Shown: in pieces, positions 25,888 through 35,526 of the stretch | Position numbering within the stretch: position 1 is the first letter of the stretch | Layout of the letters: every line of letters starts with the position of its first letter | Assembly (NCBI RefSeq): GCF_011745625.1 | Contig: NW_027191452.1 | Span: forward strand, 682,001-746,000 | Length of the DNA stretch: 64,000 nt | Direction: 5' to 3' | Source of the DNA: Cladosporium halotolerans | Lineage: Eukaryota | Program-made: the position numbers and the translations under genes | The notes under the pieces: generated by a model | What the model saw: only the letters and a program-made list of their open reading frames with translations | The model's database searches: none | Told to the model about the DNA's origin: nothing

Positions 25888-26961
25888 ACGACAGTATACC
25901 CATTTTTGGCGGTTTTTTGTTTCTTTTATTTTCTTTGCCCTAAGAGCGAGCCTTTGGAAGACCAACGGCCGAATCGCAGATCAACAACTTTTCTTCTTCA
26001 TTAGCATGTTCAGCGTGAGTTGAGATCTCGAGCGAGAGAGCGAGACTGAAGGGACGGAAGTGATATCTCCTTCAGTGAAATGCTATCGGGCTGTAAACAG
26101 GCGGCGGACTTGGAACTATAGCTGGTTGAACATGTTATGGCTCTAAAGCCATTCTCCGCTGTCTTTGTCATTGCTTTTGACTTTCGATTGAATCGTCTTA
26201 AGAAGTGCTCCGTTCAGGGTTAGGCTGCTCGGCAGCCACGCGTGTGTCTTGTGAGATGGTCACGACACGCAGCTCGAGCCCACCGCAGGGCCAAGCGGCA
26301 CTTCGGAGTGACGTGTTCGGTGTCGTCTATCTTCAGTAGGGTGAGCGTTCTGATATCAGTCAAGCAGTGGTGACCCGAATTGCCAAGGCGACTAGAAGAT
26401 CAGGACATGGGTACAGGCGCCTGACCATGACCAATGCTCCCAAGGACGTCGCTACCTACCTAGGTACTCTGATGAAGATGATCGTCACGCAGTACGAACA
26501 TTTCGCGGTCGTGCTCAAGCATACCAAGAGGAACCTAGGGTTGCGCCACGGAATCCTAACATAAAATTCAAGCTTCAAACTGCAACCCACACCAAGCTAA
26601 CCTCGATTCACGAGCGGTTAAGTCGATTGCTGAGGTGTTGCCCAGGCGCATGTTACTTGCTTGACTAGGCATTATTATCATTGATCTGCTATGATGCGCC
26701 CAGGCTTTTGCCAAGCTGCAGGGAGATATGCGGCTGCGGAACGTTTGCGGAAGCTGTGTAGGACAAGCCCATCACCAGGTACCTCCGTTCTTTCCGCTCT
26801 CCGCCGATGGCCAGGATATGCAAAGATTCCTATAATACTGCTGCCATCGTTTGCTAGTCCTTGATAGATACATCTGATTTTATCGATTGCAAAAGATAAC
26901 TGTGAAGGGCAAATTGATCAACAGCAACGAGAAATATCAATTCTTGTTCAGTTCAACGACG

Positions 26962-27576
26962 ATGTTTGGTTCGAAATCGAACGTCTTCGTCTCGCTCAGC
27001 CCCAGATATGATTATGATCAAGAGGGAGGAAGACGTTGCATGAGGCCGCATCACGTTTGGATGCTCACAGTCGAGACACCAAAGTACAGCTTCCCAGGAA
27101 CGCAGCAGAGAGATCCCAATCCTACCCACTATTCAGTAGTCTGGAACGAATACATCGGCCATTACGAACTGATGCCGGTATCACCGACAAATCTCGGTAT
27201 CATCGGCAGCATTCTTATCCAACGACACGCCCCTGCATCGCCGGAGAGATTGTTCCAGAAGTTGAAGGCGGGCATGAAAGCACATAACGCGAGTTTCCCG
27301 ACAGAACTAGAGGACAGTGACGGATCCGAGGACTGGGTCATGAACGCACTGCAAGCACTCCAAGACGACGCGACCATCCAGGAGTTCAACATCGACCTCT
27401 TCATGACTTTCTCCAAAGCGTACCTGGCCCGCCGAATGGACGGAGAAGGACCGGCGCGAATCGCTTATTCGAGGTTGCACAAGGACCATTCGCAGAAGCA
27501 GAGGAGCAACTTCTGGGTATCTTATCCGCAGAGGTCTTGCAACTACGAGGGCAATGTGTACGGCGGCCTCATGTGA
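26962..27576 (+). CDS. Hypothetical protein (204 aa)
   Basis: Intronless ORF with coding-like codon usage; pattern VFVSLSPR..HHVWML..DWVMNALQAL. Confidence 0.65.
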   Translation: MFGSKSNVFVSLSPRYDYDQEGGRRCMRPHHVWMLTVETPKYSFPGTQQRDPNPTHYSVVWNEYIGHYELMPVSPTNLGIIGSILIQRHAPASPERLFQKLKAGMKAHNASFPTELEDSDGSEDWVMNALQALQDDATIQEFNIDLFMTFSKAYLARRMDGEGPARIAYSRLHKDHSQKQRSNFWVSYPQRSCNYEGNVYGGLM

Positions 27577-28554
27577 TGCGGATTGAAGCGAAGATGCAGA
27601 AGAACACCAGCTTTAGAGATTTCGATTTTCTCGAAGGCCAAGGATAGCTCCACACGCCGGTCACATTCCGTCGCCGTTTGGCGCATCCGGGATGTCCGTT
27701 TGCTACACACAAGGAGTCATTGCCTGATACGTCAGCACGCCTGATGCAGTATGGGGCAAAGGGAAGGCCGGAAAAGGCTCGCGTGCAGAGAAAGAGCTGG
27801 CCGTTCAAGGGGTGTGGTGGACTGTATTCCGGCATACCGTACTCGTCACGCGAAACATTCGTTACCATCTCGAAAGGCCGATTTCTCGCGACGGAATATC
27901 AGGCAACGCGTTGTGAGAAGCAATTACAGCTTCTCGGCTCCAGCAAACCGAGTCGCGGCTCAGGCGCTACTATCTCCTTAAGATGCAGGGCCGCGCGAGT
28001 TGGAAGGTTAGGATACAATTACACGGTACCACAAGGTCCGAGCGGTGCTATCCCGTACGTAACTCACGAATATAACGAAAATCGGAAGATATTATCAAAG
28101 AGACTACTTCTGTCGTGTTTTCCAAGGAGTTGTTGTTGCTTGGGACGGAAATGTTGGTGCCTAGATTTTGGCATTGTTTCCCGCGAAATGTAATACGTCA
28201 CGCGTGGCGCAGCTCATGGGCAGGAAATCAATGGCCGGAATGGAGCTAATGATAAGTCTGTCGTGCGCACTTGCGGAAAGCAAATAATGACGGGTGGCGT
28301 GCTGGTTTGTTTCGGCGCCGTGCAATGTTTTGGAAGGCCGTTGGAGTCAGCGACTTCTTTGCGCCCAAGACATCAAGCCCGCCAAGCCTCCGCCTCACCC
28401 ATCCGACCTTGCCGCCGCGTCCGTATCTGCCTTTTTCTCGAGCACTACACATTTTCAGGTACTGGAAAAGGCGGTCGATACAAGCGCAACAAGGCGTATT
28501 CCCATGTCCCACTATCATACGGGTGTCCCTGCCGCTCCGCCATGGTCCGCCAGC

Positions 28555-30326
28555 ATGTCGATGCAAGCTTCCATCGTCCTCGACCAACCTGGTAACATCT
28601 CATTTACAAACCTCGACGAGATCAGCGGTAGAGTGGTCGTACGATGTTCGAAAAGTGTCGACATCAGTACGATCGTCGTCAAACTTGAAGGTGAGAGCCG
28701 CACGCGGCTTATGAGCTCTCCTGGTCCCGATGGAGAACGATCGAAGCCGCAGTTAGAGTATCACAAAGTATGTCATCGTCTTGCAAGGCAATGTTCATTC
28801 AATCCTAACTCTCTCAGATCCTCTACCGAGTGCAGATGGTGTTCCCGCCTGCCGACGTACTTGAAGGCAGATCTCGGACGGCATCCGGTAAAGGATCGTA
28901 TACTCTGCCGCCTGGGACGCACGAATATCCCTGGAGGTTCAAGGTTGGTCGAACGATCTCAATTTCTCTAATTATGCTGACTAAGTCCTAGCTCCCGTTC
29001 AACAATGCATGTCATTCTCAGAAAAGCATGATCGCAACATCTCCTTTGGCCACTCTCGGCCTTGAAGCGCCCAAAGTAGCAACAAGGCATGTGCACAAGA
29101 CTTTGCCTCCAACACTCAGTGGCTTCCCTGGAGAGGCTGAGATTCGTTACTTCGTAAAGGCTACCGTGGGACGACATTCGTTCTTCAAGGAAAATCCAAG
29201 AACATATACCCCTTTCAATTTCTTTCCGATTGAACCACCCCGATCGCCTCCGACTGGATCTCAGGTCTATGCTCGCCAAAAACACGCCTTCGCGCCTTTC
29301 CAAGATGCACCAGTGAAGGAGAAAATGAAGAGCATCTTTGGAAAGAAGCCAAGCGAGCCTGCTCCACTCGCTGGAGATGCGCCCTTCATCAGTGTAGACG
29401 CTCGCTTACCCGAGCCTGCAGTCCTCACCTGTAACCAGGACATACCGCTTACAATACTCCTTAAGCGCCTCAACGCCAGCTCGGATCCGATCTATCTGCA
29501 GTCACTCCAAGTCTCTCTAATAGCTAGCACAAAAATTCGCGCGCATGATGTTTTCAGGACCGAGCAGAATAGTTGGATCATCATGAGCCAAAGCAACATG
29601 GGCATTTTGGTGGGCTCGACAGCAGACACTGAGGGAACCGAAGTCGCTATCAACGAAGGTCTATGGCGTGGAAAGGCCTTACCCAACACGGTCGCTCCTT
29701 CTTTTGAGAGCTGCAACATCGCGCGAAGCTACAGCCTGGATGTCCGAATAGGTTTGAGCTACAGTGGCTCATCACAAGCGGGCAAGCTGAGCAAAGCATC
29801 AATGCAGCGTTCTGTAAGTTTTCAGGTTGCATGCGGGTGACCTCAGAAGCTTAGTGCTGACCAAATCACATAGGCACAAAATGTAGTGCTTCCTTTGAGA
29901 CTTGAGACTCAGGTCTATTCAGGCATAGCACCGCCAGCAGAAGTAATACAACGAATGGCAGAGGCTCGCGCCAATGGAAAACAACCGTTGAGTGAGCCAG
30001 GACCTGCAGCCGCGGCATCTTCGGCGATGGACGAGAAGCTTCGAACTGAGGGACGCAAATCATCCACAGCAGGGCCAAGCTCATCGGCGCCGCATAGTCC
30101 GATTAATCCTGAAGCACCGCAGATCCCGGCCAGGCCAGGGCGGCCAGTACCGCAGCAACCGCAGGAAGAATATGGAGATGCACCACCGAGCTACGAAGAT
30201 GCGATCGCATCTGATGTGGCGCCGGTGGATGCCCCAAGGCCTGACTACGCACCACCACCGACAGGCGAGGACCAGACGTTCAAACAAGATGAGAAGAAAG
30301 GATGGGTTGACTTTCGAGAGCTTTGA
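28555..30326 (+). CDS. Alpha-arrestin (ART family) adaptor; introns 28768-28817, 28944-28991, 29814-29873; alternative ATG at 28504
   Basis: FTNLDEISGRV..IVVKLEGESRT, LPPTL, IRYFVKATV, PSFESCNIARSY and a PPxY motif DAPPSYEDA. Splice sites keep the frame. Confidence 0.88.
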
Positions 30327-30849
30327 GGCGGGCTATAAGCCGGGCATGATTAGTAATAATGATCGAATGATTATCTCTACAGCTCTCACTTGCCCGTGAC
30401 CTACAAGGAAAATGTTAGTCGCGAATGAGGACATGGAGTGAGGGTGCTCAAGAGAGTTGGCACGTGACGCCAAGCCTCGTGACTAAAGCTGAGTCGGGGT
30501 CAAACATCCGCTGCCGCTCTCCAAAGTCGCCCAGTACAAATACTGGGGTGCACCAACCAACATTCAGCGACGGCAGCGACCAAGGTCTGAGAGGGCTTCA
30601 GATAGTACACAGCGGAGTTTAAAAGCAAGGACACACTGAAAGTGGGGATACCAGAACTCCTTGCGCGCGCTGCGGGTCAATACAAACCGCGCCGCTTCGC
30701 CCTGGACTGCTTGAGTCGTATACCGCTGTTCATCACCATCACTAGCATCGGCATCATTTCAGACGCCAGCACACCTTCAAGCCCGCCTGTTTCGCTTCAG
30801 TCTGTGGCCTTACCGACACATCCCTTGCCTTCTTCGAATACTCGCGACC

Positions 30850-32595
30850 ATGACGAACGCGCTGGTGGTATGTCCGCTTTCGAGGCGTAGCAAGAGCACG
30901 TGACACGGCGATGGCTAACGCTGTCGACAGGGCGACGTCTACGAGAAGATCATCCAGGAGGTAGTGGATGCGTCTAAGAACGACTTCGAAGAGAGCGGCG
31001 TCGGGCAGGGTACGCTGAACGAGCTGCAGCAGGTAAGCAACGGCGATGTCGTTCCTCTGGCGCTGCAAGAGTGCTTTTCCCACCACGTCCATGCAGTCTG
31101 GCATGGGAGCCACGACCAGCGTCAACCGGGAGGCCAGCACCGACGGCGTGAGCGCAGGTGCCCGGGGCTGTTATTGCTCTTCGCAGGCGGCTGGCACACG
31201 GCCAGCGCTCAGCAATCGCGGCAGGCAGCGTGCGCAGGGCAAAGCGGGGGCTTTGAGGATCGAGAGCGCCGGGCTCTCCGCTGCTTTTGCACCGACGCTT
31301 AAAAGCGCCCTCGCCTGCCGCACAGCCCCGCTCGCCGACCGCGCTTGACCGCTTACAGTTGGCCTGCAAGATCACGTGGCTTAGTGGTCGCCTGCAGTCA
31401 CTCGCATACCCGCATACAGGATCGAGTCGAATGATATACTGACAAGCGATTGCAGGAATGGCAGCACAAGCTCTCACAGCGCGGGGTCGCGCAGATGCCT
31501 TGGGATCCGAAGCCCGCACCGCCGGTCCAGCAGCAGCAGCCACCTCAGCAGCAGCAGTCGTCTCACAATGCCGGCATGCCTCCCGTCAACGGGAATGGGA
31601 TGCCGCCTGTATCTTATGGCGGCTACGACAACAATGTGGCCGCCCCCTCCAATGGTACCCCGCGGATCAAGACCGAGCCTGGCATGGAGCAAGCACAGCA
31701 GCCCCAGCAACAGTACCACGGGTTACCGCCTATGAGTAGCTATTCACAGATCAACGGTGGCCAGGGCGGTGGCGCTGCACGCGCTCAGCAGCTTGTCGAG
31801 CAGCAGTTCGGTCCGCAGGCTACAGCCGGCTTCCAACGTGGCGGTCTCGCTCTGCCCGGCCAGCAGCAAGCCAAACCTCAGGGCCTGCAACTCCCTCCAA
31901 ATAACAGCCAGCAGATGCATCAACAATATCAACAGCAACAGCAACAAGCTATGCAGCAAAGGCAGCAGCAACAGCTCAATCAACAACAACAGAACCCTCA
32001 GATCAAGGTCGAGAACAGCAACACAGCGCCGCAACAAGGCCAGTATCAACAGCAGCCGGCTCCGAACTACAGTCAGACAGATGGCGCCGATGACGCACTT
32101 GAGGAATGGCGAGCGATGTTGGCAGAGCGCCGCGCCATCGCTCAGAACCAGACAGAGCATGCAAATAACATGATGCGCGAGCGTATCGCTGCCCTCTCAG
32201 ATGACCTTCAGAGCGGTCTCATGATCCCTTTGGATGACCAGCAACGACGCTTGCAGGCACGCAGTCGCAAAGCAAAGGCTGCGAAATCGAAGAGAGCTGC
32301 TGCACTCCAATCTGGCTCAGAAATATCGACCCTGCCGGCGATTACGCAGCTGGACGGTGATGCAGCCGATGACGAAGATGACGAAGATGCAATCAACTCC
32401 GACCTCGACGATCCCGAAGACGACACGAATCAGATCAACGACGATGATGACGATAACGGAGACAGCATCTTGTGCACGTACGACAAGGTCCAGAGGGTGA
32501 AGAACAAGTGGAAGTGCACCCTCAAGGATGGCGTCCTGAATGCTAATGGCAAGGAGTGGCTTTTCCATAAGGGCAATGGCGAGTTTGAGTGGTGA
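30850..32595 (+). CDS. TOA1: Transcription factor IIA large (alpha/beta) subunit; introns 30868-30930 and 31033-31455
   Basis: MTNALV|GDVYEKIIQEVVDASKNDFEESGV..LQQ|EWQHKL; Q-rich linker; QLDG; DAINSDLDD; LCTYDKVQRVKNKWKCTLKDG..GEFEW*. Confidence 0.95.
31033..31455 (+). ncRNA. Candidate structured intronic RNA in TOA1 intron 2
   Basis: Several nested 6-9 bp complementary pairs found by eye (see findings). No known family recognised. Confidence 0.5.
31908..31995 (+). repeat. CAA/CAG-rich poly-glutamine tract in TOA1
   Basis: caacaatatcaacagcaacagcaacaa...caacaacaacag. Confidence 0.8.
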
Positions 32596-33250
32596 AAGGG
32601 ACAATTACTTCTTTCTCTTCTCTCGAAGCATGTGATGCCCCTCTAGTCCGTCAATGAGCATTCTAAAAGAGGCTTGTCTTGATTAAAACACCAGACTGCT
32701 GGAAGTTTTTGGCACACCCACCGGAATAGGTGCGACACATGTCTGCAATTGCTTGAAATACGAGATTGCACAGGGTGCGAACAGTTGACTTGGACGGGCT
32801 GCAAAGAACGTATCGATGATAATGAATCTACAATTTACTTTTATTACACAAATCAAATGCTACAAAAAAAAAAACCATTATGGAATCGAGTTTTGCTAAC
32901 AATCAAGTTTTCCATTGTTTCGTTCAGTTGCAGACCAAATTCGGCTTGGAAATGAATGCTGGGCTGTGACGCGGCACTGCGCCGCGGCGGGTGGATGAAC
33001 GTCCAGCCGAAAGTGGGCAGGCCAGGCCTCGTCGATCAACCATGCCTCTGGCCGCGATTGCCCGACTAAAAGGTAAGGCACGACAGGCTTTGGTCACGTA
33101 GCTGTCCTTCCTACTTTCCTCCTTTCTTTTACTTCCCGGTCAGGTTGTTTGCATTCCCTTCATTGCTGGTCTTTTCACTTCCCAACAAAACCCCTCCCTT
33201 GCGTGGTTTCATCCTTCCTTCTCAATCTCCCCAAAAATAGACCCGTCACG

Positions 33251-34292: not shown

Positions 34293-35526
34293 CTATTCCC
34301 AAGCCCATCTTTTCTTACACCACTTTATTACATACACCAGCAAGACCAGCACGGGCACCTCGATCAGGGGCCCCACCGTCGCAGCCAACGCCTGCTGGCT
34401 GCCAGCTCCATACACCGCCACGACGACCGCAATGGCAAGCTCGAAATTGTTGCTCGCCGCTGTAAAAGACTGCGTGCAACTGATCTTGTAGCCGAAGCCA
34501 AAGCGCCACATGACCCATGCGGTGGTGGTGAATACCACCAGAAAGTACACCACAAGCGGTGCGCAGACTCGCAGGACGGACGTGATCTGCTCGACAACGT
34601 GCAGGCCTTGCGAGCCGAACAGGACGATGATGGTGTAGAGCAGACCGATGAGCGAGAAGGGGGCGATGTACCGGATGAAGTAATGCTGATATCTGTACTC
34701 TCCGATCAAACTTCTCAGAGCCAGCCTTGTGACGATTGCAGCCGCCAGTGGAATGCCGAGGAAGACCGCCACGGACGTGGCCGACTTTTCGTAGATGTCT
34801 CCGTCGATTTCGCTGCCTGATTTGCGCGAGACGACCTGAACGTAGAACACCGCCAGAGGGGCGAAGAGAACGATCTGCAGCAGGCTGTTGAAAGCTACGA
34901 GCACGGCGCAGTAGTCTCCATCGCCACCTGCCAGGTCAGTCCAGATAAGCACCATGGCAATGCAGCGTGCGACTCCAACGAAGATGAGTCCATCTCGAAG
35001 ACCCTCGCGGTCCGGTAGGAAAGCCCAGGCCAGAGCAGTCATGAAGAGGGGCATCACGATCCAGTTCAAGATGAAGCTGATCGCAATCTGCTTCCACAAA
35101 TCCCGAGTCTTGAACAGTAGGTGCAGCGTCTCGAAGCGGACCTTGCAGAGGATCGGGTACATCATGACCAGAAGGCCCACTGCGATCGGTGCACTGACAC
35201 CCACGAATGTCCCTCGCTGCAGCGCCGGGCCAGTCTCCGGTACAAGGTTCGCGAGGATGATTCCAATGGCCATGGCTAGGAGGATCCAAATGACAAGAAA
35301 ACGGTCGAGGATCGATAGACCCTTGAATGGAGGCGGTGGGGCATCATCTGAGATGGTCAGTAGTCGATCAAGCGAAGTGAGTGCATGTTGATTTCCGACC
35401 TTCTCTTGAAGTGCGGTGAGGCGCATCTTCGTTTTGAGATTTGTAGCCGTGTTCTTCTGTTGCGCTAAAGGCACTCTCTTCATCCTTGACTGTTTTGCGA
35501 AGTGCACCTCGCTCGGGTGTATCCAT
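34293..35526 (-). CDS. ACR3: Arsenite efflux transporter Acr3; intron 35348-35399
   Basis: MDTPERG..SRE|DDAPPPPFKGLSILDRFL; MMYPILCKV; ARCIAMVLIW; ASNNFELAIAV; GPLIEVPVL. Confidence 0.95.

Follow-up and report, generated by a model that had tools for sequence, protein, structure and literature searches.

The TOA1 locus and its second intron

The subject of this analysis is the second intron of TOA1, the gene for the large subunit of the general transcription factor TFIIA, in a 64,000-nt stretch of the Cladosporium halotolerans genome (contig NW_027191452.1, positions 682,001 to 746,000; the whole stretch is referred to as the window, and its numbering is used throughout). The gene lies on the plus strand and consists of three exons: exon 1 (30850..30867), encoding MTNALV; exon 2 (30931..31032), encoding GDVYEKIIQEVVDASKNDFEESGVGQGTLNELQQ; and exon 3 (31456..32595), which includes the TGA stop codon at 32593-32595. 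Between them lie intron 1 (30868..30930), of 63 nt with GT..AG ends, and intron 2 (31033..31455), of 423 nt with the 5' splice site GTAAGC, a branch site TACTGAC at 31437-31443 and the 3' splice site TTGCAG. Two metatranscriptome runs, X15 and X16, which belong to two studies, each yielded one RNA contig that joins the exons with exactly 63 and 423 nt removed; the longer mRNA contig (X15) has its 5' end at 30545. Exon 2 matched positions 1-32 of the Pfam profile PF03153 (E 8e-11) and exon 3 matched positions 34-415 (E 7.4e-86), and with both the N-terminal helical part and the C-terminal beta-barrel part matched, the host gene is that of the TFIIA large subunit.

A preliminary description of this locus had recognized 31033..31455 as a TOA1 intron of unusual length. 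Splicing of the RNA contigs, the GT..AG ends and the PF03153 matches bear out the assignment, and at 423 nt the intron is 6.7 times as long as intron 1 of the same gene; its G+C content is 63.6%, compared with 55.5% in the window. The same description had proposed that the intron folds into a nested multibranch RNA, acting as a cis-regulatory RNA or hosting a noncoding RNA (ncRNA). As set out below, comparison with orthologous loci revealed a conserved core of ~210 nt inside the intron, and it is this core, not the proposed fold, that the evidence singles out.

Long introns at orthologous loci

Orthologous loci were drawn from metagenome contigs by a search with aligned exon 3 relatives. Of 571 matching stretches, 333 encode a relative; 80 loci were kept, and 61 of these allowed placement of exon 2 as well as of the beginning of exon 3. 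Twelve of these 61 loci have no intron at the intron 2 site. Ten of the twelve also lack intron 1, and the other two keep intron 1 only, indicating that these are RNA-derived contigs from which intron 2 had been spliced out. The splice signals GT..CTRAC..AG were present in all 49 remaining introns, 48 of which are 240-520 nt long (median 400); intron 1 of the orthologous genes has a median length of 79 nt (n = 38). With one exception, the introns at the orthologous position are long, and the unusual length is a property that the window shares with its relatives.

The sole genomic ortholog with a short intron at this site is L055 (L055:2923-2997; 75 nt, 41% G+C), whose nearest named protein is from Elsinoe (46% identity); this lineage either lost the element described below or never had it. 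Individual contigs also differed in their splicing. On a metatranscriptome-type contig from an Aureobasidium-like fungus (L015:407-738), intron 1 had been removed and the 332-nt intron 2 was retained, and the 496-nt intron of L070 (L070:493-988) is perhaps a second case of intron 2 retention, or else comes from a species without intron 1. The reverse pattern, with intron 1 retained and intron 2 spliced, was seen in L022 and L045.

Judged by their nearest named TFIIA proteins, the carriers of the long intron span Dothideomycetes and Eurotiomycetes. These proteins include, for Pleosporales, those of Didymella (95%) and Alternaria (97%); for a carrier in Dothideales, that of Aureobasidium pullulans (100%); for Teratosphaeriaceae, those of Friedmanniomyces and Extremus (100% each); and for Chaetothyriales, those of Exophiala (86%) and Knufia (80%). 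One carrier is Aspergillus-like (56%), and several others are less than 45% identical to any named protein. The TOA1 protein of the window is itself at most ~51-55% identical to those of named species (Vermiconidia, Lecanosticta) and 74-79% identical to those of its six closest relatives among the loci.

The 3' end of exon 3 also varies among the orthologs. In L044, L029, L061, L034, L056, L035, L025, L027, L032, L071 and L055 the frame stops after ...KDG(V/I)L....(K/R/T/A/N)E, the tails reading KE, RE, TE, AE or NE, which would put a third intron ahead of the last ~12 codons. No such intron is present in the window, L015, L070 and L076, where the frame runs through to ...GEFEW.

A conserved core within intron 2

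The conserved core of intron 2, as delimited by the sequence-profile match, occupies 31172..31383 (intron positions 140-348). In BLASTN local alignments with the six closest relatives, the core was 77-80% identical and the flanks could not be aligned. Identity to the window, taken segment by segment over the same six relatives, was 73-76% for the core, 49-57% for the 5' flank and 48-61% for the 3' flank; the comparison parts gave 90-93% for exon 2, 57-63% for intron 1, 65-68% for the glutamine-rich coding linker and 81-85% for the C-terminal coding part. By these sequence identities, the core is conserved above neutral. One-base insertions and deletions inside the core argue that it is non-coding. 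Open reading frames (ORFs) across the intron (189 amino acids on the minus strand; 100 and 112 on the plus strand) were considered as coding candidates and rejected, as they matched no Pfam family beyond the exon 2 part and the indels are incompatible with coding.

Further lineages, at consistent positions, were picked up with an nhmmer profile that was iterated over the introns; their E values were 1e-13 to 1e-3 when first found (profile members thereafter match by construction). Run on both strands of the 80 loci (328,620 bases) and of the 64-kb window, the profile matched 36 loci and the window. All matches were in gene orientation and lay inside intron 2 or, in seven contigs without exon 2, just upstream of exon 3; no match outside this intron position was found in the 328,620 bases of loci or in the window on either strand.

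The earlier interpretation is supported in part: the suggestion that the long intron is functional holds, its length and a ~210-nt core being conserved over two classes, and the RNA fold on which the suggestion had been based is not borne out. The intron is probably kept long because it houses this element. Fungal classes rarely share conserved non-coding sequence, and in this case it lies within the gene of a core transcription factor. A literature search, which beyond the papers cited here did not extend to full texts, found no description of an element in a TFIIA/TOA1 intron.

Motif content of the core

Motifs were counted in 47 distinct long introns and compared with shuffled sequences. 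The most widely conserved block, M1 (AAAGCGGGG, 31241..31249), is an A-rich run followed by SYGGGG; RAGYGGGG was present in 31 of the 47 introns, compared with a shuffle mean of 0.7, and the SYGGGG in M1 is a candidate site for a CreA/Mig1-type C2H2 factor. In most introns M1 lies ~175-218 nt from the 5' splice site, across a stretch that is not conserved in sequence and that is pyrimidine-rich in the Pleosporales-type introns. About 45 nt past M1, in most lineages, a yTTTGRGTCA (TGRGTCA-like) block adjoins YTTATA; in L034, L056 and L065 it reads exactly TGAGTCA, which we take to be a Gcn4/AP-1-type site. On the antisense strand, TATAAR was found in 32 of the 47 introns (shuffles: mean 7.4, maximum 13), and on the sense strand in one (shuffle mean 4.9). 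In the ortholog alignment, the window has TTAAAAG (31299..31305) at the position where most orthologs have YTTATA. About 20 nt farther on, the orthologs share a C-rich CCCCRC / CCCCGCCAAG block, in the form CAGCCCCAC or CCCCGCCAAGCC; this is motif M3 of the window (CAGCCCCGC, 31323..31331), the reverse complement of SYGGGG, which in Pleosporales-type orthologs reads CCCCGCCAAGCC. The promoter-type word CCCCGCC is also among the core motifs.

The window contains an RTCACRTG-type E-box, ATCACGTG (31371..31378), at the core's 3' edge and 84 nt upstream of the 3' splice site. RTCACRTG was found once, at the homologous place, in 30 of the 47 introns (shuffles: mean 2.1, maximum 6), and in most carriers it lies 56-123 nt before the 3' splice site. 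Its orientation is plus in 14 introns, minus in 13 and both in three, and CACGTG, CATGTG and CACATG interchange; keeping its place while flipping strand fits a palindromic site in duplex DNA. The window itself thus has M1, M3 and the E-box and lacks TATAAR. Between M3 and the E-box lies a GCGCTTGACC block (31341..31350), whose conservation is confined to two groups, that of the window and the Teratosphaeriaceae-like one. For this reason, use of GCGCTTGACC..CAG as an alternative 3' splice site or as a poison exon was rejected.

RTCACRTG-type sites are not enriched in the window as a whole, with 11 sites compared with 9.5 expected; the 5' end of TOA1 has three of the 11 inside 920 bp. One of these lies in intron 1 (30897-30904). 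A fourth site, ATCACATG on the minus strand at 32629-32636, lies ~35 nt past the TOA1 stop codon. Upstream of the gene, a motif scan found GTCACGTG (minus reading, 30461-30468) followed directly by CGCCAAGCC (30468-30476); these motifs (30461..30476) are ~70-85 nt 5' of the mRNA contig start. The next gene on that side is arrestin-like, on the same strand (26887-30399, plus), with Arrestin_N and Arrestin_C matches that are weak and below the Pfam cut-offs. With that gene ending near 30399, the regular TOA1 promoter would be confined to ~150 nt. On the other side of TOA1, an ORF at 34293-35507 on the minus strand strongly matched SBF, the sodium/bile acid symporter family (PF01758, E 9.1e-45).

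RNA structure of the intron and of its core

According to the preliminary description, the whole 423-nt intron forms one nested multibranch RNA with six long-range helices and five side hairpins. All of the listed complements exist: the ten string pairs and the CGCT-TAAA-AGCG hairpin are present at their positions, two pairs requiring G.U and two arms sharing one base at 31278, and several of the listed helices appear in the minimum free energy (MFE) structure. Short perfect complements are, however, expected by chance in an intron with 63.6% G+C. The whole-intron MFE was -177.3 kcal/mol, compared with -175.85 +/- 6.05 kcal/mol in 100 dinucleotide shuffles (z = -0.24; 41 of 100 were as good), and in a second set of 200 shuffles z was -0.33, with 71 folding equally well or better, so that the folding energy is not below that expected by chance. 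For the minus strand, two shuffle sets gave z = -1.5 and -1.2. The sub-stretch 31163-31330 reached z = -3.0 on the plus strand and -3.4 on the minus strand, its ends having been set post hoc on two helices.

Comparison with the six closest relatives gave a similar picture. When the 71 proposed pairs were mapped onto these seven sequences, 66.9% were paired, a figure that includes the window at 100% by construction. Two-sided changes were found at four pairs, compared with 2.2 in shuffles (39 of 500 reached the observed number), and the covariation score was 0.099 compared with 0.093 (50 of 500), so that covariation of the proposed fold did not rise above that of shuffled alignments. Most of the long-range helices, including the outer ones, were kept at only 43-62%, and the outer-arm regions (139 nt at the 5' side, 72 nt at the 3' side) cannot be aligned even at 74-79% protein identity. 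Among the proposed helices, only GCGGCAGG/CCTGCCGC, 86% kept with one two-sided change, and the invariant CGCT-TAAA-AGCG hairpin held in the seven sequences.

The preliminary description could not assign the RNA to the thiamine pyrophosphate (TPP) riboswitch, the signal recognition particle RNA, RNase P/MRP or the small nucleolar RNAs (snoRNAs), and Rfam agrees. In a scan of 30700-31800 with Rfam 15 (E <= 10), the only line was snoZ206, at 15.9 bits compared with a gathering score of 50 (E = 7.1); no family, including the small nuclear RNAs, matched at the gathering score, nor did any in 20 orthologous loci (88,739 bases). Having failed on folding energy and on covariation, two grounds of refutation that the preliminary description itself had named, and with neither an Rfam match nor a structure shared by the cores, the nested fold is almost certainly not what the intron forms as a whole, be it as a cis-regulatory RNA or as a hosted ncRNA. 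The case carries a caution: tidy nested complements of 6-9 bp are at chance level in an intron of 64% G+C, and the real signal emerged only from the orthologs.

The core gave little sign of a common fold. RNAalifold applied to 24 orthologous cores from all groups predicted four pairs at -1.9 kcal/mol, with a covariation term of +0.16. For 13 cores from the window's group and the Teratosphaeriaceae-like group the consensus energy was -6.0 kcal/mol, and for nine Pleosporales-type cores it was -18.0 kcal/mol on the plus strand (covariation term +0.88) and -12.9 on the minus strand. The covariation terms overall were zero or unfavourable (+0.16, +0.88, -0.17, +0.58). The MFE z of 20 representative orthologous cores relative to shuffles averaged -0.64 on each of the two strands. 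The structures of the different groups share only an invariant GGGG/CCCC stem. This M1-M3 helix (GCGGGG with CCCCRC), the sole helix common to all groups, was rejected as a conserved structure, since 14 of 24 sequences have a C.A mismatch in it and none shows a two-sided change. A covariance model of the nine Pleosporales-type cores (R1), run on 42 sources, recovered those nine together with L032, L050, L024, L070 and an L011 fragment, and its reach is below that of the sequence profile, which matched 36 loci. On comparison of the aligned sequences, the core appears to have no shared secondary structure, and its conserved part is the primary sequence of promoter-type motifs.

Several likenesses to known RNA elements were considered and set aside. 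The U6 likeness of GCCCCUGCGC and the likeness of GAAAGCGGGG..ACAGCCCC to RNase P/MRP CR-I/CR-V were inconsistent across lineages and had no Rfam support. An Sm-like site at UAUUUGG and a TFIIIC B-box at GGATCGAGAGC were, by eye, likewise inconsistent across lineages. Inspection of the core alignments by eye, with no dedicated snoRNA finder run, showed neither C/D boxes (RUGAUGA, CUGA, terminal stem) nor an H/ACA arrangement (hairpin-ANANNA-hairpin-ACA).

Interpretation of the core

The core is conserved, carries the motifs described above, is restricted to this intron and has no conserved RNA structure. We propose that it acts as double-stranded DNA, as a conserved promoter- or enhancer-like module and not as a folded RNA, a reading to which we give about an even chance; an antisense promoter is its most specific version. 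Transcription factors and TBP would bind the core, and the module would drive transcription from a start within the intron, most likely giving an antisense RNA that extends back across exons 2 and 1 and the TOA1 promoter. Another possibility is that the module is a downstream enhancer. Either way, TOA1 expression would be tuned by transcriptional interference or chromatin effects, as for the meaB intron of Aspergillus nidulans (see below). In the window the antisense TATA is degenerate (TTTTAAG), which makes an enhancer or a TATA-less version more likely there. In a further elaboration, which we regard as quite improbable, the intronic antisense TATA promoter would be a sensor of TBP-TFIIA activity in a negative feedback on TOA1: when TFIIA is plentiful, the antisense promoter would fire and hinder sense transcription. 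If true, a general transcription factor would be under a negative loop that has been kept from before the split of Dothideomycetes and Eurotiomycetes.

A number of observations weigh against a promoter- or enhancer-like module. The 47 introns are related, so that the motif counts are not phylogenetically independent, and the motifs are assigned to their putative factors by consensus resemblance only. TATAAR is missing from 15 of the 47 introns, among them that of the window and those of its six closest relatives, all of which read TTTTAAG in antisense, and the E-box from 17. The promoter model does not explain the near-constant distance from the 5' splice site to M1, which is 175-218 nt. Read in antisense, the E-box lies ~70 nt upstream of the TATA and so at least ~100 nt from a likely start, beyond the -70 peak of A. 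nidulans promoters (PMC4046813), and conservation also extends over ~110 nt downstream of the antisense TATA, with M1 among them, which a simple core promoter would leave unexplained. The RNA contigs show only spliced sense mRNA; those of X15, X16, X18 and X19 do not cover the intron, and this speaks neither for nor against an RNA derived from the intron or from its antisense strand. The antisense reads of A. nidulans discussed below come from tables of counts, and any tie to the intron core is conjectural. Some structural signals also run counter to a DNA element. In a sequence-only alignment of the nine Pleosporales-type cores, five of 24 pairs had a two-sided change (3 of 500 shuffles), the structure being derived from the same alignment and each change occurring in a single sequence; in an alignment of 14 sequences fitted with the covariance model, and thereby biased to the structure, the number was 12 of 24 (0 of 500). 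The Pleosporales-type consensus energy is better on the plus than on the minus strand (-18.0 and -12.9 kcal/mol), and M1 can pair over 8 bp with a nearby complement in several lineages, the partner differing between them: GAAGCGGG/CCCGCTTC in L009 and L010, AAAGCGGG/CCCGCTTT in L027 and L077, and CGGGGCTT/AAGCCCCG in L015. These are weak hints that the core may form small local hairpins in some lineages.

Such hints would fit a core that acted as RNA in the sense pre-mRNA, where linear protein-binding motifs or small, lineage-variable hairpins could set the speed of splicing or retention, for example in a feedback on the amount of TFIIA. The constant gene orientation of the core is in keeping with this, as are the varied M1 complements, the Pleosporales-type two-sided changes and strand difference, and the retention of the 332-nt intron 2 in L015 (and perhaps in L070) with intron 1 spliced. 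Nevertheless, we consider a role in the pre-mRNA unlikely. No structure is common to the orders (four pairs in 24 sequences, -6 kcal/mol in 13), the RNAalifold covariation terms are zero or unfavourable, the mean MFE z is -0.64 on both strands, and the M1-M3 helix is broken by a C.A mismatch in 14 of 24 cores without a two-sided change; the counts in its favour depend on a structure drawn from the same sequences or on an alignment fitted to that structure, and on changes in single sequences. Retention of intron 2 is not special either, as ten RNA-derived contigs are fully spliced and two retain intron 1. Finally, the E-box flips strand and the TATA is canonical only on the antisense strand, both of which speak for duplex DNA.

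A separate stable ncRNA of a class absent from Rfam, either cut from the excised intron or made as a short RNA from the antisense TATA, is a reading that we find very unlikely. Several features would suit it: the core is ~130-210 nt long, single-copy and long linked to its host gene, like fungal intronic snoRNAs; in most carriers the distance from its 3' edge to the 3' splice site is 56-123 nt; the ~110 nt past the antisense TATA are conserved; and most antisense reads of A. nidulans toa1 would appear to fall in introns of the 5' third. They are outweighed by the Rfam results (snoZ206 at 15.9 bits compared with a gathering score of 50, and no match in the 20 orthologous loci), by the lack of C/D or H/ACA boxes in an inspection by eye that was not a systematic scan, and by the lack of a thermodynamic or consensus-structure signal on either strand. 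In addition, neither TFIIA nor TOA1 comes up in the main text, supplements excluded, of two screens for covariation in fungal introns (PMC8216456, PMC5640933).

Comparison with known systems

RNA elements in fungal introns provide one comparison. The fungal TPP riboswitch sits in NMT1/THI4-type introns and, like the TOA1 core, is a conserved cis-acting element inside a fungal intron; in contrast, the TOA1 intron matched no TPP or other riboswitch model in the Rfam scan, and its host gene is not metabolic. Closer in their distribution are the Pezizomycotina intron RNAs described by Gao, Jones and Rivas in 2021, among them an intronic H/ACA snoRNA and a structure in the metacaspase 1B intron (PMC8216456), each of which, like the TOA1 core, is a single-copy conserved element in the same host-gene intron across Pezizomycotina. 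Those RNAs were recognized by significant covariation, at 4-24 pairs (PMC8216456), whereas the TOA1 core has no common structure, no boxes recognizable by eye and no Rfam match.

The motifs of the core resemble instead those of fungal promoters. RTCACRTG is the site of Cbf1 (PMC10516642). Mapping of transcription start sites in A. nidulans identified CACGTG, ACCGCC and CCTNAGG as over-represented promoter words, and CACGTG, ACCGCC, TATAA and SYGGGG are positionally constrained promoter motifs in this species: CACGTG and ACCGCC peak at ~-70, TATAA lies at ~-45 to -30, and CreA (SYGGGG) sites are more frequent between -50 and -100 (PMC4046813). The same words occur in the TOA1 intron core and in the upstream region of TOA1 in the window. 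They differ in that those of the core lie ~750 nt past the mRNA start, inside an intron, and in that the spacing between E-box and TATA is larger, at ~70 nt.

The A. nidulans data also include toa1 itself (AN0816, on the minus strand), with a locus of 1759 nt and exons of 1260 nt (PMC4046813). Supplementary file 7 of that paper lists 183 antisense reads for AN0816, two in the left part, none in the middle and 181 in the right part, which is the 5' third of this minus-strand gene, and flags the gene as 5'-biased, as are 352 of the 7,697 genes with antisense reads; 126 of the 183 came from 72 h of nitrogen starvation. The exon-only table (supplementary file 4) gives 2,653 sense and 56 antisense reads, so that, provided the two tables count identical reads, ~127 antisense reads would fall in introns of the 5' third. 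Supplementary file 9 places a 'tight' major sense start of ANIA_00816 at 2341305, which is 103 nt within the locus as annotated (right end 2341408); this would mean an annotated start codon placed too far upstream, or else an internal start. The unannotated transcript FWD.23297, which carries a weak TFIIA Pfam line, was considered and rejected, as it lies at AN8669 and is unrelated.

The closest parallel to the proposed promoter- or enhancer-like module is the first intron of A. nidulans meaB (AN4900), which is 331 bp long compared with a median of 59 bp, harbours six copies of the GATA motif and yields an AreA-dependent antisense transcript that affects the sense RNA; in Fusarium fujikuroi, the corresponding meaB intron contains a functional sense promoter (PMC4046813). 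Both introns are several-fold longer than usual (331 compared with 59 bp; 423 compared with 63-79 nt for TOA1), both lie in genes of transcription regulators and contain a cluster of transcription-factor motifs, and antisense reads at the 5' part of the gene are found for meaB and also for A. nidulans toa1. The motifs themselves differ, being GATA sites for AreA in meaB and SYGGGG, TATAAR, CCCCGCC and RTCACRTG in TOA1. For meaB the internal promoter, the regulator and the effect on sense RNA have been shown, whereas the TOA1 element is known from its sequence; on the other hand, the TOA1 element is conserved in sequence across two classes, a feature not reported for meaB. If the core is indeed an internal promoter, probably an antisense one, meaB-type control would have a second example, conserved far more widely, and there would be a testable route to how fungi set their TFIIA levels.

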